From contig NW_026889805.1 in assembly GCF_033153115.1 (NCBI RefSeq), forward strand, positions 5,580,001 through 5,644,000: DNA of 64,000 nucleotides, read 5' to 3'. The notes below the pieces were generated by a model. That model was not told the origin of the DNA. It made no database searches and saw only the letters and a list, made by a program, of their open reading frames with translations. The stretch comes from Saccostrea echinata. Taxonomy: Eukaryota. The position numbers and the translations under genes were made by a program. Below are positions 881-9,800 of this stretch, one piece after another; the first letter of the stretch is position 1, and the number at the start of each line of letters is the position of its first letter.

Positions 881-3800
881 AATTAAATACTGCTTTGATT
901 TTGAGATTTTAGATTCAGTCTCCCTGATTATAAATAACGGTTTCTAAACCACAGTTCTTGATGTCAAAGTAAACTTACTAAAACTCTTACATCCACTGTA
1001 TCAGCAATTTGAACCCAGTACTTCCACACTTTGATTTGAACCCAGTACATATTTTGAATAAAATACCTACACATAACTCTGCATATCAAATATTTTTTAA
1101 AGGTTTAATTCATATATCATATATGTACACAGGCACTCTGGCTTCGTTCAAACCTTATTTAGTATCACATGTATCCTGTTTCTAAGTTTTAGAAATATGA
1201 GCCTTTGTTAAATGGCTGATCACTTGCTGGGCTTTTTTAAGTGAAAAAATTAACTGTCTCTCATAAAAGCGTAATTACCATCCAATGATTTTGAACAGTG
1301 CCAATATGATGCTGAATTATCTATGATCATGCATATTAACTGATGTCTTTACAGGTCCATATATGGTACCGGACAGAACCTCCAACACAACCTCCACAGT
1401 AAGGTATAAAACAGTGTTACCTTTGTTTTTATATTGAACAGTTGCACTTTAATTATATGTGTTATTCGATCACATCTGTTCATAATTCGTTTCAGCAATA
1501 CCTCATTGATCAACACAACAGGTAAGCAGAAACCACATCTAGCATAATTACAATGGAATATCCATAACTATAGGCTACAATTCACTATAGAATATACAAG
1601 GTACTAGTTCAGCACATCTAAATATCTCAAAATTATATAAAGGACAGTTGATTCTATAATACAGACAAAAGAGGAATGCTACAGGAATTCAATCATATCC
1701 AGATTTAGTATTGCCATACTTTAAAAAAGAAGAAATTAAAGTGTCTCTATTTCTGCAAAATATGGAAGGGTAATTAGTGCCACGTAATTTTTTTTAAGTT
1801 GGTAATTCCAACTTAAAAGTTGGTAATTTCAACTTTAAAGTGATAATTCCAACTTTAAAGTTGGATATTCCAACTTTAATCTTGGCTTTTCCAACTTTAA
1901 AGTTGGTTTTTCCATCTCTGTGTGGCTTTATGCATTATATTCAGATACTTTGTAGCTGGACTCGTGTTTCCGTTTTCTGCATGTAATTACAATGGAAAGA
2001 AAACGTTTTAAATTATGAAATAATGATGAAAGAAGGAATTATTAATTTCATTCTGTTTTCATGTACAGAATTGATACATTTAGTTCTGTTGTATTTGTTG
2101 TAGCATGTAATATAGTGTTGAGTCATCTTATATATCGAACACCTATTAATGGTCTCATTTGTTTAAGCTTATTCTCTCAAACATAACAAAATATATGTCT
2201 GATCTCTTAAATAGGTTTGGTTGAAATCCTGTCAAGTACGTAGTTGTATGAAGTTATTCTCTATATAATTATATAAGATGGACTAAAAGAAATATAAGGG
2301 TTTTTAATTAAAAGTTGGAAGTTATATGTAAGGTCATATTGAAAGTAAGGTAAAAAATGATTGACACAGATTAATTGCACACCAGTCTATTTCAGAGATA
2401 AGATAAGATAAGATATTCTTTATTTCCCCCAAATTAATGGAGAGTTTGTATGATCAAATAATTAATTCATGTAACAACACAATACAAAAGAGAAAACATA
2501 TTTATATATGTACAAATTTAATGTAAAACATTACAGGTTTCTACAATCTATGGCAAAAAGGCTTTTGTTTTTATATACTGTTGAGGCAACGATTATCATA
2601 ATACGCTTCCATTTTGTAAAAGATATTTTTTCAAAACTTGTGCCTTGAACACAACCCATTAACGATAAAAACTGTAAATCGGGATCTTGATCTTCAAATA
2701 AAACATACTCGTTTACATCAAGTATATCTAAAATGTCCTCAAACATAGTTTCTCTGTCGTCTAATAATGTAAAACAACTTAAGATCAAGTGCATATTATA
2801 GTTACTTGTTAGCTTATTACAAAGTTGACAAAATTTACGAACAATTTTCATCGATGAAACCTGAATCAAAAAATTGATTAACAGTCTTTTTGAGGGATCC
2901 TCTCTAGCAATCTGCCACAATTTATTTGGGTTTAACATGGTATGTATTTTACTGAAAAAAGACATATCAGGATCTCCAGACAGAGCAGCACGCCATTGTT
3001 TTTCCTCTGCTGACCATATTGTTTTGATAATCATTTTTGAAAATTCCTTTTTGCCGTATATAATACTACAATTATTTTCAAACACATCTAAGAGCTGGTA
3101 TTTGTTAGCAGTTTGTAACATGTTTTTGGTTGCAAAAAATTTTTCAGATACATGAACATCAGAAATAAACTTATAGATCTGATAATGTACAGAGGTTTGT
3201 TCTGACCTATGGAGTCTACCTAAAAAAAGTAGGCGACATTTATCAATGTAACCCTGTATAGTCCACAGACCAATATTTGAGATGCTTGAAAGTGACGGAG
3301 AAAACTTTGAAAATCCTTGAATTATTCTGGAGAAGTGTCTTTGTACATATTCAAGTTGTTGCATGTCTGTTAGTGACAATGACGGCCAAATATCGCAGGA
3401 GTAGAGGGCAGACGGTAGTACGACCCGTTTCCATATTTTTGCAGATACAACGGGATGAATGTCAGAGTTATTAACACCAATAGAATATAAAGAGTGGATT
3501 TTTGATCTAGCAGTTTTGCACACTCGTTCTGTAAGTTTGTCACTTTTCATGTTGGCCTGGAGAAGGCAACCAGCATATATTGTATTTTCAGACTGAGGTA
3601 TTTCACTACCAAAAAGCGTAACGCTACAAGATAAGGAACATTTTTGTGTTTTCCTAAATACAATAAAGACACTTTTACTAGGATTATAATGGAGTCTCCA
3701 AGTAAATGCATAGTTTTCTACATGGTTGAGTAAACACTGTAAGGATCTTGGTGAATTGCTCATTAGAGCAGTATCATCTGCTAATAGAATACCTGGAATG

Positions 3801-6800: not shown

Positions 6801-9800
6801 GTAGATATTTCATTTCAGATTTAAGTTGTGTTGTAAAATCTGCTAGTCTTTTTTTCTCCTCCTCATGTGATGTCATTTCCTTTTGAAGACGGTTATTCTC
6901 TGCACGCAGTTGACGGATTTCATTGTTCTTGGACCGGATTTCACACGCAAAAACTGCTTTTAATTCTGTTAGTGCTTCCCTTATAGGTTGTAGCTCTTCG
7001 TGTAAGCATCCTTTTAGGGTTTGTAGAGTTAGTCCATTTAATGCGTCTTCTTCACATAAAGTCCTATTTGCAACCTGCGACGAGTCTTGTGAAACAGAGT
7101 TCTTCATTTTATATTTACTCATAACTTCTCTTTGGAACTCAGCGGACGACACAACGCCTTCTGTGAAAGCATATATATAGTACACATCAGATGCATACTT
7201 TTCCGTTATTGACTTCCCGGTACCTCTTTGCCGCCGTTCTGTTAGGAAACCTGTAGGGAATTCTTCGATTGTGGATTTTGCATAATCATACATACTTTGT
7301 CTTATTTCATTCATCTGATCTGGATTTTCCACGTATCTTTCCACCATGTTCTCTATGAAATTCTCTTTATCGTACTGACCAAACTGTTTTCTGATTTCTT
7401 CATATATTTCATTTTCAAGTTCTTCTGCATTTTGAGTGCAGTAAACATTATTTTCAATGTAACTGTCACTCTCGCAGCCGTTTTATTCATCTTTACTATT
7501 ACTCATATCCAGAACAGCGAATTATAAACATGCTATCCTGAACATTTGGAAACACCCTGTACTTGTCAAACAGCCTAACGTGACCTCGTTACTGGACACG
7601 ATTGAGTTACACCTGGGTGATTTTTATACAGGTAAACAGATAATGTTCGACCGGAAGTGATAATAACTTGAAAATTATGCACTTTTTTGATAAACTGTCA
7701 CGATAGATATATAAACAGAGCATCAATAGCATAAAATACCTATTTTTCTACGGTTTTTGATGTCTGGATACACGTATTCGAAGCATACAACGGGTGCACC
7801 GTTCACTCACCGTTCCAAGTCGAGGGGCACCATACGGGAAAAAAAAAACTTAAAAGTTGGTAATTTCAACTTTAAAGTGATAATTCCAACTTTAAAGTTC
7901 GATATTCCAACTTTAATCTTGGCTTTCCCAACTTTAAAGTTGGTAATTCCAACTTTAAAGTTGGTAATTCCAACTTTAAAGTTGGTTTTTCCATCTCTGT
8001 GTGGCTTTATGCATTATATTCAGATACTTTGTAGCTGGACTCGTGTTTCCGTTTTCTGCATGTAATTACAATGGAAAGAAAACGTTTTAAATTATGAAAT
8101 AATGATGAAAGAAGGAATTATTAATTTCATTCTGTTTTCGTGTACAGAATTGATACATTTAGTTCTGTTGTATTTGTTGTAGCATGTAATATAGTGTTGA
8201 GTCATCTTATATATCGAACACCTATTAATGGTCTCATTTGTTTAAGCTTATTCTCTCAAACATAACAAAATATATGTCTGATCTCTTAAATAGGTTTGGT
8301 TGAAATCCTGTCAAGTACGTAGTTGTATGAAGTTATTCTCTATATAATTATATAAGATGGACTAAAAGAAATATAAGGGTTTTTAATTAAAAGTTGGAAG
8401 TTATATGTAAGGTCATATTGAAAGTCAAGGTAAAAAATGATTGACACAGATTAATTGCACACCAGTCTATTTCAGAGTATTAATTTTATTTACATTAATA
8501 AACTTGGTAATAATTTAAAATAAAAGAAAAAAGCTAAGAAAAAGGGCCAGAAGAGCTCAAATTAAAGTTGGAAAAGCCAGGATTAAGTTGGAAAATCCAA
8601 CTTTAAAGTTTGAATTACCAACTTTTAAGTTGGAAAAGCAAACTTTTAAAATTGGAATTACCAATTTTTAAAAATTATTACGTTGCACTAATAAGCTTTC
8701 GTAGCAAAACCCAAATAAGATCATTGTGTTGAAAAGAATGAAAGTCAGTCATATCATATCTATTTTTTACAAGGCCTACACAAGTTTATAGGCAGTATAA
8801 TTTTATTTTAACCATATCAATTATTTACAAGACTAGTCGCTTGATAGATATTGTTCTTATAATTAAATATCTAATTTGGTAGATATTTCTTTCAGATGAT
8901 GATAGAATTTCTCAAGAAAGACATGATATTATGATTTATATGTATGTTGGTAAGTTTCAATAATTCTAATATCTAAAATTGAACATGATTACTTACATGC
9001 GGTCCACTTTATGTATCTATTCCTTTCTCGGCTTTATTTTCCCCAGAAGCTGCCTGGGCCGCCTTTATTCTCCTGCTGATATTCATTTACTTCCCAGCTA
9101 AGCCCCCCAAACCTCCGACTTTGTCAGCTTCCGTGGAGCGCATGGACTTCAAGGCTGGCGCCAAGTGTCTTGTCAGGTTTATAGATTTTATATTTACCAT
9201 ATGAAATGTTTAACTTCTGAAATTCTCGGTGGCTGTATTATAAATGTCTGTATATTGTACAGAAATGTGCGGTTTTGGATTATATGTGCTACATATGGTA
9301 TATCTCTGGGAGTCTTTAACTGTTGGCAGAGTGTTCTTGATGTCATCCTTAAACCTCACAACATAGACGAGGTAATTAATTCATTACAATTTAACAAAAC
9401 TACAATTGATGAAATGTTGCATTGATGTACAAAACAAAAAGACACCCATTATCAATTCGTCAAGTTAAATAAAAAAAGCTAGCACAAATCATATTAAACA
9501 CCATTTTAGCTGTCAAAAGGTTTCCATAAATATGTATTAACAAATTCCATCTTCGGTGGCGAATATTTCTTTTATAGTGGATTGCACTGGGCGTTCGATC
9601 TGTTGATCACTGGTGCCATTTTGCACACGAATGTCATATAAATGGATTTTATTTCATAATTTCGACATTACTTCCCTTTGTGCAACATTACAATAAGTAC
9701 TATGGTGTATCTAAGAAATAATTATAAAATGTTTCTCACAGAACGAGGCTGGATGGCTGGGCTTCTATTCCATTCTTGCAGGTTGTGCTGGGTCAATAAT

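Follow-up and report, generated by a model that had tools for sequence, protein, structure and literature searches.

A LINE flanked by a probable long duplication of its target in an intron of the oyster Saccostrea echinata

An intron of an SLC49A4-like gene of Saccostrea echinata contains a minus-strand non-LTR retrotransposon (2398-7846, 5449 bp) with an ORF1, an ORF2 encoding APE endonuclease and reverse transcriptase (APE-RT), and three premature stops, bracketed by direct repeats of 588 bp (copy 1, 1810-2397) and 631 bp (copy 2, 7847-8477); positions are those of the window, the whole 64-kb stretch of DNA that was analysed. The repeats are probably a long target-site duplication (TSD), left by a single event of target-primed reverse transcription (TPRT) by a Proto2-type LINE, with the second-strand break far from the first nick. 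TPRT insertions usually leave TSDs of 5-30 bases. For this LINE family, so long a duplication is most likely an occasional outcome rather than the rule.

The repeat copies and their target

Global alignment and self-BLAST of the copies (E = 0.0) bear out the coordinates given for both in an earlier note on this DNA. On the plus strand, copy 1 adjoins the 3' tail of the LINE and copy 2, with two extra 21-bp units, its 5' end. The optimal global alignment contains two substitutions (1863 G/7900 C and 2061 A/8140 G), a 42-bp stretch present in copy 2 only, and a 1-bp indel (8426); the indel and the two 21-bp units had been described before, whereas the three substitutions then counted are obtained if the 42-bp gap is placed as two whole units. 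Outside the 21-bp array, 482 of 484 columns are identical (99.6%), against 83.6% between the arms of the MITE in which the repeat lies, which points to an origin of the two copies from the same locus. No third copy of the repeat interior occurs within the 64-kb window.

The repeat corresponds to the inner part of a ~0.9-kb MITE, each tip of which is present once: a left tip (1763-1809, plus strand) just after a TA (1761-1762), and a right part (8478-8701, plus strand) that includes the inverted arm (8562-8700) and is followed by another TA (8702-8703), the TA being a weak sign at 2 bp in AT-rich DNA. The arms (1765-1900 and 8562-8700) are 83.6% identical over 140 columns. Removal of the LINE and one repeat copy leaves a single MITE of 859 or 902 bp, with both arms and a TA on each side; the target element has the terminal inverted repeats, lack of an ORF and short TSD of a MITE. 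MITEs occur in many copies, and L1 is well known for read-through transduction; a donor LINE within another copy of the MITE might have brought 588 nt of flank with it and been placed at the corresponding site by homology. This is extremely unlikely: no second tail stands at 1810 in copy 1, an identity of 99.6% would be high between paralogues when the arms of the element are 83.6% identical, and the window holds no second full copy of the MITE, only a 35-bp, 77% match to its left tip (28345-28379).

Copy 1 passes directly into the 3' microsatellite tail of the LINE (2396-2415), four AGATA units that read (TATCT)n on the minus strand. The exact contact of repeat and tail previously claimed is confirmed, but the microhomology is the 2-nt AG at 2396-2397, common to tail and target, and not GAG, the G at 2395 being outside the tail unit. 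At the other junction, a run of 10 A (7839-7848) leads into copy 2, the last two A alone being target, and the last 69 bp of the LINE share only 7-8-mers with the target, with no sign of a templated 5' insert. Both ends of the repeat match the ends of the LINE, with 2-nt microhomology at each junction and without an extra short TSD; the repeat adjoins both ends of the element and is target sequence, as a true TSD would be, the LINE's 5' end being a presumed one, 340 bp upstream of the ORF1 ATG (7506). The presumed 5' UTR (7507-7846, minus strand) ends, on the plus strand, in eight A (7839-7846) of non-target origin.

If the interior of the MITE had been tandem beforehand, the LINE could have landed exactly at the junction without a TSD, and indeed the palindromic array is prone to slippage and some related loci have no TSD, which means that the clade may at times insert without one. 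However, such a landing demands that the LINE strike no more than about 2-3 bp from one junction in ~1.2 kb, there is no short TSD at either end of the LINE, and the right breakpoint (2397) is in non-repetitive sequence, all of which make a prior tandem highly unlikely.

The insertion is within one intron of the SLC49A4-like gene, between plus-strand exons at 1354-1401 (residues 205-220 of the S. echinata protein, tblastn of P0168) and 8889-8948 (aligning to residues 228-247, tblastn), with a probable plus-strand micro-exon, read by eye, at about 1496-1521. The exons keep their order across the insertion in all three named oyster proteins tested (tblastn). The gene also has a tandem exon pair (191-355, 530-688), which is old and occurs in other oyster genera too, and so was not made by the LINE insertion; the idea in the earlier note that long duplications could give rise to tandem exons was already in print (PMC5223499).

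The LINE and its family

ORF1 (5971-7506, minus strand, ~511 codons) is interrupted at codon 8 (7483-7485), and ORF2 (2531-5974, minus strand, 1147 codons) has premature stops at 4841-4843 and 3803-3805 but no frameshift. The stop-split segments of ORF2 match Exo_endo_phos_2 (E 1.1e-05) and RVT_1 (E 9.7e-15) in Pfam, below or near the curated cut-offs in the case of APE, and the ORF2 profile matches L1 ORF2p with E 1e-78. An APE domain upstream of the reverse transcriptase, a simple-repeat 3' tail, (TATCT)4, and the lack of LTRs and integrase are those of an APE-type non-LTR element; Pfam found no RLE-type match in the 1147 residues of ORF2, in contrast to the Dualen clade, which combines APE with RLE. 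The tail is preceded by a 3' terminal stem-loop (2418-2443, minus strand), of which the folding energy is not significant alone (z 0.0), followed by AAATAAAG; the motif GGAGGA..TAAAG stands ahead of a tail in all four related loci examined for it (L005, L006, L007 and L009). Rfam gave no matches in 1-12000.

Two direct repeats of ~0.6 kb around an ORF1 and a reverse transcriptase gene might suggest LTRs or other element-borne terminal repeats, a reading with next to no probability: ORF2 is an APE-RT without integrase, protease or RNase H family matches in Pfam, its best relatives of solved structure are L1 ORF2 and R2, and the repeats, which are without TG...CA ends and beyond the tail, form the central part of a MITE with tips on either side of the whole structure. 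The earlier view of the repeat as target DNA and not an LTR is upheld by the APE-RT, the single MITE tips and the ordered host exons.

The LINE groups with bivalve Proto2 elements of the RTE group, to judge from tree neighbours labelled by motifs. Its separate ORF1 (124 relatives at E up to 0.001) and ORF2 in 5449 bp fit Proto2 (separate ORFs, about 5-6 kb), and in a reverse transcriptase tree (quick IQ-TREE of 125 rows with midpoint root and without labelled references, the careful search being incomplete) its sequence (P0001) falls inside a 30-row clade (SH-aLRT 99) together with P0019, P0030, P0031 and P0023, which share motifs of 10 residues with M.edulis_235 and _265, elements assigned to Proto2 by tree (Table S7, PMC10294476). 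A classification as RTE-X, suggested by other motifs, gives way to Proto2 on the evidence of the tree and the M.edulis motifs; Proto2 is often named RTE-X by BLAST, and RTE-X is the RepeatMasker type of two of the three entries looked up in the tables of PMC10294476. The ESM Atlas gave no clade name for the LINE, and no S. glomerata Proto2 consensus is among the matches listed (21 of 22) from the supplements of PMC10294476.

It is possible, though doubtful, that in this Proto2 family of the oyster the 5' end is routinely joined at a distance of hundreds of bases from where the first nick fell, each insertion duplicating about 0.1-1 kb of host DNA; one copy has been seen. The 64-kb window contains no second copy of the LINE (E up to 0.01) and no other reverse transcriptase match (tblastn, four queries), and protein searches found no protein more than 85% identical to ORF2 and hence no member of the same family. 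Contig scans yielded 56 pattern matches with P0002, none confirmed, and 55 with alignment A1, of which 15 were confirmed, all 25-29% identical; the contigs of these 15 distant loci, filed as prokaryotic MAG records, look like eukaryotic carry-over. None of the 15, most of which lack flanks, has a long direct repeat on both sides, and a junction repeat of at least 7 bp is absent from the two distant Proto2-like loci with both ends definable, L006 (flanks 85 and ~390 bp) and L007 (flanks ~950 and ~1040 bp), a weak comparison as these are different families on short-read contigs, which are biased against long TSDs.

Origin and age of the duplication

As the earlier note proposed, a distant second-strand break or template jump ~0.6 kb away is the most economical cause of the duplication. 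In the most probable course of events, the APE endonuclease would nick the plus strand at about 2395-2397, as in the established TPRT mechanism, and the free 3' end (...CAG/AG) would pair with 2 nt of the UAUCU tail of the RNA and prime the cDNA, giving the junction observed. Reverse transcription would reach the RNA 5' end or nearby, with the observed A run at the end either templated or added. The break in the opposite strand would fall near 1810, at a distance of ~588 bp, within the palindromic 21-bp array of the MITE, possibly where a host structure-specific nuclease cut a hairpin, or at a pre-existing nick. The A run of the cDNA could then pair with a TT end at this second break, and the 588-bp duplex between the breaks would be unwound and both its strands filled in, leaving one copy per side; the small differences between copies may stem from fill-in (slippage in the array) or later changes. 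The 5' breakpoint falls in a predicted DNA hairpin of the array (1792-1818, plus strand, 11-bp stem), with the start of the duplication (1810-1812) 2-4 nt inside its 3' arm, which hints weakly at a structure-guided break, as the whole array folds (z -8.55 for the entire stretch 1763-1930).

The LINE has three premature stops in 4.97 kb, against two or three substitutions between the repeat copies. Under one clock, the probability of at least the observed number of stops, given the total, is 0.046-0.082 for all three and 0.089-0.137 for the two of ORF2 only. By this excess (P 0.05-0.08) the LINE seems somewhat older than the duplication and looks, from sequence, slightly more decayed than the repeats; the excess would need an already damaged donor, conversion between the repeats, or chance. 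At conserved columns, the LINE departs at 8 of 129 (three in common with P0002) and P0002 at 4 of 127, which is too noisy for dating.

An identical structure is predicted without a distal nick, if the 3' end of the finished cDNA invaded the unbroken sister chromatid or homologue ~588 bp upstream, by AA/TT pairing, and replication-type repair recopied the target. Possible primers include DNA ends exposed in replication or repair (PMC5223499). With the homologue as template, the indels (42 bp and 1 bp) and the two or three substitutions could be allelic, SNV heterozygosity in oysters being 0.6-1.3% (bioRxiv 10.64898/2026.02.10.705023), but the repeats should then look older than the LINE, and the observed skew is the opposite; a sister-chromatid template would leave the same sequence as a distal nick. 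Strand invasion is, on the whole, unlikely.

Allele-like differences between the copies would also be accounted for if two independent insertions of the same family, 588 bp apart on different haplotypes, had become one within the LINE, through crossover or an assembler merge, yielding a pseudo-TSD. Oyster genomes have 3-13% structural heterozygosity (bioRxiv 10.64898/2026.02.10.705023), and a comparable model has been discussed for the long TSDs of HML-2 (PMC5488345). Such joining is improbable, as it requires two same-orientation insertions of the family within 0.6 kb, whereas no other family copy exists in 64 kb, and simply merging haplotypes around a single insertion with a short TSD cannot yield the junction of LINE to 1810, to reason from the junction sequences. 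It is further disfavoured by a 64-kb window without N and by LINE ORFs without a frameshift over 12 homopolymer runs, which suggest that the sequence of the window is accurate. A single TPRT event with a distant second-strand break is preferred.

Long target duplications of other LINEs

Long target duplications by LINEs are already in print, including one family that has them as a rule, and the oyster locus is not new in kind; TSDs longer than 20 bp are treated as a recognised class (PMC4245944). Insertions of Dualen-4b_cRei in Chlamydomonas reinhardtii are likewise flanked by long target duplications, exceeding 50 bp in more than half of insertions, with a median of 900 bp, which the authors propose to be caused by the RLE and APE nucleases of Dualen (PMC9977147); the oyster LINE has APE only. 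Zebrafish ZfL2-2 produced one 1228-bp TSD among 25 wild-type inserts, a similar but rare event within an otherwise short-TSD family, of the L2 clade and inserted de novo in chicken cells (PMC2666801). In human L1, APE-type like the oyster LINE, TSDs longer than 100 bp accompany as many as 10% of the inserts in HeLa cells and 21 of 23 inserts in XPC-deficient cells, long TSDs characterising most inserts in NER-deficient cells and some exceeding 1 kb; they were ascribed to a distant nick with strand displacement, and exon duplication was proposed (PMC5223499). These L1 inserts were engineered, in cell culture, and such cases are common only where NER is deficient, whereas the oyster LINE is a naturally occurring, aged insertion from the assembly of an invertebrate.

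Rotifer R9 is RLE-type, and the RTE-group element Rte-1 of C. elegans was reportedly first found with a flanking direct repeat of ~200 bp. R9 resembles the oyster LINE as an animal LINE family with a long TSD, but is rDNA-specific, and its TSD of 126 bp (as cited in PMC9977147) is five times shorter. The ~200-bp repeat of Rte-1 was not confirmed in the literature searched; TSDs of 10-49 bp in 30 of 53 RTE-1 copies (PMC6007223, Table 1) mean that long repeats are at most not universal in RTE-1. TSDs of the RTE clade are mostly 7-15 bp (PMC6007223), those of its member SR3 10-12 bp, and L1 TSDs reach several hundred nt (PMC1291365). Bivalve Proto2 elements (RTE superfamily) have, like the oyster LINE, an ORF1 and an APE-RT in ~5.5 kb (curated mean 5675 bp), and the available parts of PMC10294476 give no TSD lengths for them. 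No report of long TSDs for Proto2, RTE-X or bivalve LINEs appeared in the literature searched (few subscription papers, Repbase Reports excluded), nor anything on such long TSDs in the accessible text of 10.1101/522623, PMC3156134, PMC4640811 and PMC7846101.

The agent of the second-strand cut in LINE insertion has yet to be settled, and the length of the TSD serves as its readout. Taken as an isolated event, the oyster locus is a clean natural case of a known rare outcome, in Proto2 and in oysters, where the literature searched holds no such report. If long duplication were a family trait, TSD searches with an upper limit of about 50 bp, such as that of PMC6007223, would overlook its insertions, and the long repeats could pass for LTRs. 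The family would then be an animal, APE-only counterpart of Dualen-4b in a repair-proficient germ line, implying that long TSDs do not require two nucleases, and would offer both a natural system for the question of the second-strand cut and a route to sub-kilobase tandem duplications, the LINE being lost later by recombination between the repeats.

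A probable intronic target duplication

The structure is real and well defined; its best reading is that a Proto2-type LINE left a long target-site duplication (TSD) on inserting into an oyster intron. The LINE (2398-7846, minus strand), the direct repeats on either side of it and the MITE that holds both repeats all lie inside a single intron of an SLC49A4-like transporter gene. That the flanks belong to one locus follows from the exons on both sides of the insertion, which match three named oyster proteins in collinear order; protein alignment places residues 205-220 of the S. 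echinata protein at 1354-1401 and residues 228-247 at 8889-8948. The closest named matches of an SLC49A4-like exon (95%) and of the LINE protein (85% over 569 residues) are both from Saccostrea. The same gene has two tandem homologous exons (191-355 and 530-688): the first is the better fit to the proteins of S. echinata and C. angulata, the second to O. edulis isoform X2. This split suggests mutually exclusive exons of old origin that have nothing to do with the LINE.

Global alignment of copy 1 (1810-2397, 588 bp) with copy 2 (7847-8477, 631 bp) upheld the repeat coordinates of the earlier note, with two substitutions, a 42-bp stretch present in copy 2 and absent from copy 1, and a 1-bp indel besides; the third substitution counted in that note appears in a unit listing once the 42-bp gap is shifted to two whole 21-bp units. 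Private variants shared by the first two units of copy 1 and copy 2 fix the register of this palindromic array unambiguously; outside the array 482 of 484 columns are identical. The inverted-repeat arms of the MITE (1765-1900 and 8562-8700, 83.6% identical) contain 21-bp units with palindromic cores and have TA immediately outside each. Its single-copy stretches are 1763-1809 and 8478-8701, and minus the LINE and one repeat copy it measures 859 or 902 bp. Elsewhere in the window, a 35-bp match to its left tip (28345-28379; 77%, E 0.008) may be one end of a related element, and nested inverted-repeat elements with 20/21-bp arrays (45328-48023) differ from it in sequence. Arrays with a period of ~157-168 bp inside interspersed repeats (28693-29485, 49074-49825, 52324-52774 and 57932-59011) resemble the oyster elements that bear a ~166-bp satellite.

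Structure and class of the LINE

ORF1 (minus strand, start at 7506) is interrupted at codon 8, a position open in relatives, by a premature stop, and ORF2 (minus strand, 1147 codons, APE and RT) has two such stops, at positions where relatives carry W and L/V/T/S/I; there is no frameshift in ORF2, nor anywhere in the LINE between 2531 and 7506. Homologues are bivalve retrotransposon proteins, and the best matches of solved structure are L1 ORF2p and R2. A quick tree built on 125 RT rows places the LINE within a 30-row clade (SH-aLRT 99) that includes Mytilus proteins with motifs of two families, both classed as Proto2, RTE superfamily (PMC10294476, Table S7); the Proto2-type assignment is thus indirect, through motif-bearing proteins in a tree without labelled reference sequences. 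The 3' end consists of a short stem-loop, then AAATAAAG, then a microsatellite tail, and all four related loci checked for the motif end in the same way. In one related LINE (L009, 4776-5816), a 522-bp tandem duplication, 99.8% identical, lies inside the 3' UTR and is either real or an assembly artefact. The LINE is not an LTR element, and the chance that the repeats are LTRs, an identity that the earlier note also rejected, is negligible.

Junctions and the origin of the duplication

Four AGATA units (2396-2415) stand directly at the end of copy 1, and the 3' junction is of the ordinary target-primed reverse transcription type, with 2-nt pairing; the microhomology with the LINE tail reported in the earlier note is present, but its length is 2 nt (AG), not 3. 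The 5' junction joins the target 588 bp back, again with 2-nt pairing, and only the last two A of the ten-A run just before copy 2 belong to the target. There is no additional short TSD at the LINE junctions. The simplest account, and a fairly probable one, is a single insertion, in which target-primed reverse transcription would start at the 3' junction, the second strand would break ~588 bp from the first nick, and unwinding followed by fill-in of the duplex between the breaks would leave one target copy on each side. The break maps to a predicted 11-bp hairpin (1792-1818), 2-4 nt inside its 3' arm, where a host structure-specific nuclease could plausibly cut; since folding extends over the whole array, this is weak evidence.

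The same product would result from a close variant of the single insertion, in which the cDNA end invades the intact sister chromatid or the homologue; this is unlikely though not negligible, and a homologue template is disfavoured by the greater decay of the LINE. Three premature stops in 4.97 kb (2531-7506) point to a decay of ~1%, against 0.2-0.3% per copy from 2-3 substitutions between the repeats, and a one-clock test gives P = 0.046-0.082 for the three stops and P = 0.089-0.137 for the two of ORF2 only, suggesting that LINE decay is slightly above that predicted from repeat divergence. The skew could reflect chance, conversion between the repeats, or a donor that was already damaged and was mobilised in trans. 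That a crossover or the assembler joined two separate insertions is improbable: this requires two hits by the same family within 0.6 kb, the 64-kb window has no other copy of the family, and a simple haplotype merge cannot produce the junction of the LINE with 1810. That the LINE hit the exact joint of an older tandem duplication is very unlikely, and transduction from another MITE copy slightly more so.

Long duplications as a possible family trait

TSDs of >20 bp form an established class (PMC4245944), and those of the RTE clade are mostly 7-15 bp (PMC6007223). Dualen-4b of Chlamydomonas makes >50-bp duplications at more than half of its insertions (median 900 bp), and the rotifer element R9 makes a 126-bp TSD (PMC9977147); ZfL2-2 has a 1228-bp TSD in one of 25 (PMC2666801), and for HML-2 sites with 111 and 250 bp a pseudo-TSD alternative was considered (PMC5488345). 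In HeLa cells up to 10% of L1 inserts have TSDs of >100 bp, as do 21 of 23 inserts in XPC-deficient cells; exon duplication by this route has already been raised (PMC5223499), so that the proposal that LINE target duplications could copy exons is not new. The oyster site adds one more example to a type of event already on record. For the C. elegans element Rte-1, a surrounding repeat of ~200 bp was not confirmed by literature searches; such searches, incomplete in coverage, turned up nothing on long TSDs in Proto2 or bivalve LINEs.

None of 15 distantly related LINE loci (25-29% identity, MAG contigs) has long flanking repeats, both ends being definable in only two, and neither of these two has a junction repeat of at least 7 bp; these negatives weigh little because short-read contigs are biased against long TSDs. 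The 15 are eukaryote-type LINEs, although their contigs belong to prokaryotic MAG records; several keep long open ORFs, and one (L012), on a 1.6-Mb contig whose title names a bacterium, has interspersed repeats all around. They are probably host carry-over. Because long TSDs account for a few per cent of the inserts of ordinary families and are the rule in a few families, we consider it possible but doubtful, as a judgement rather than a computed value, that this LINE family makes them routinely. If it does, it would be an APE-only animal LINE family for which long TSDs are a routine product.
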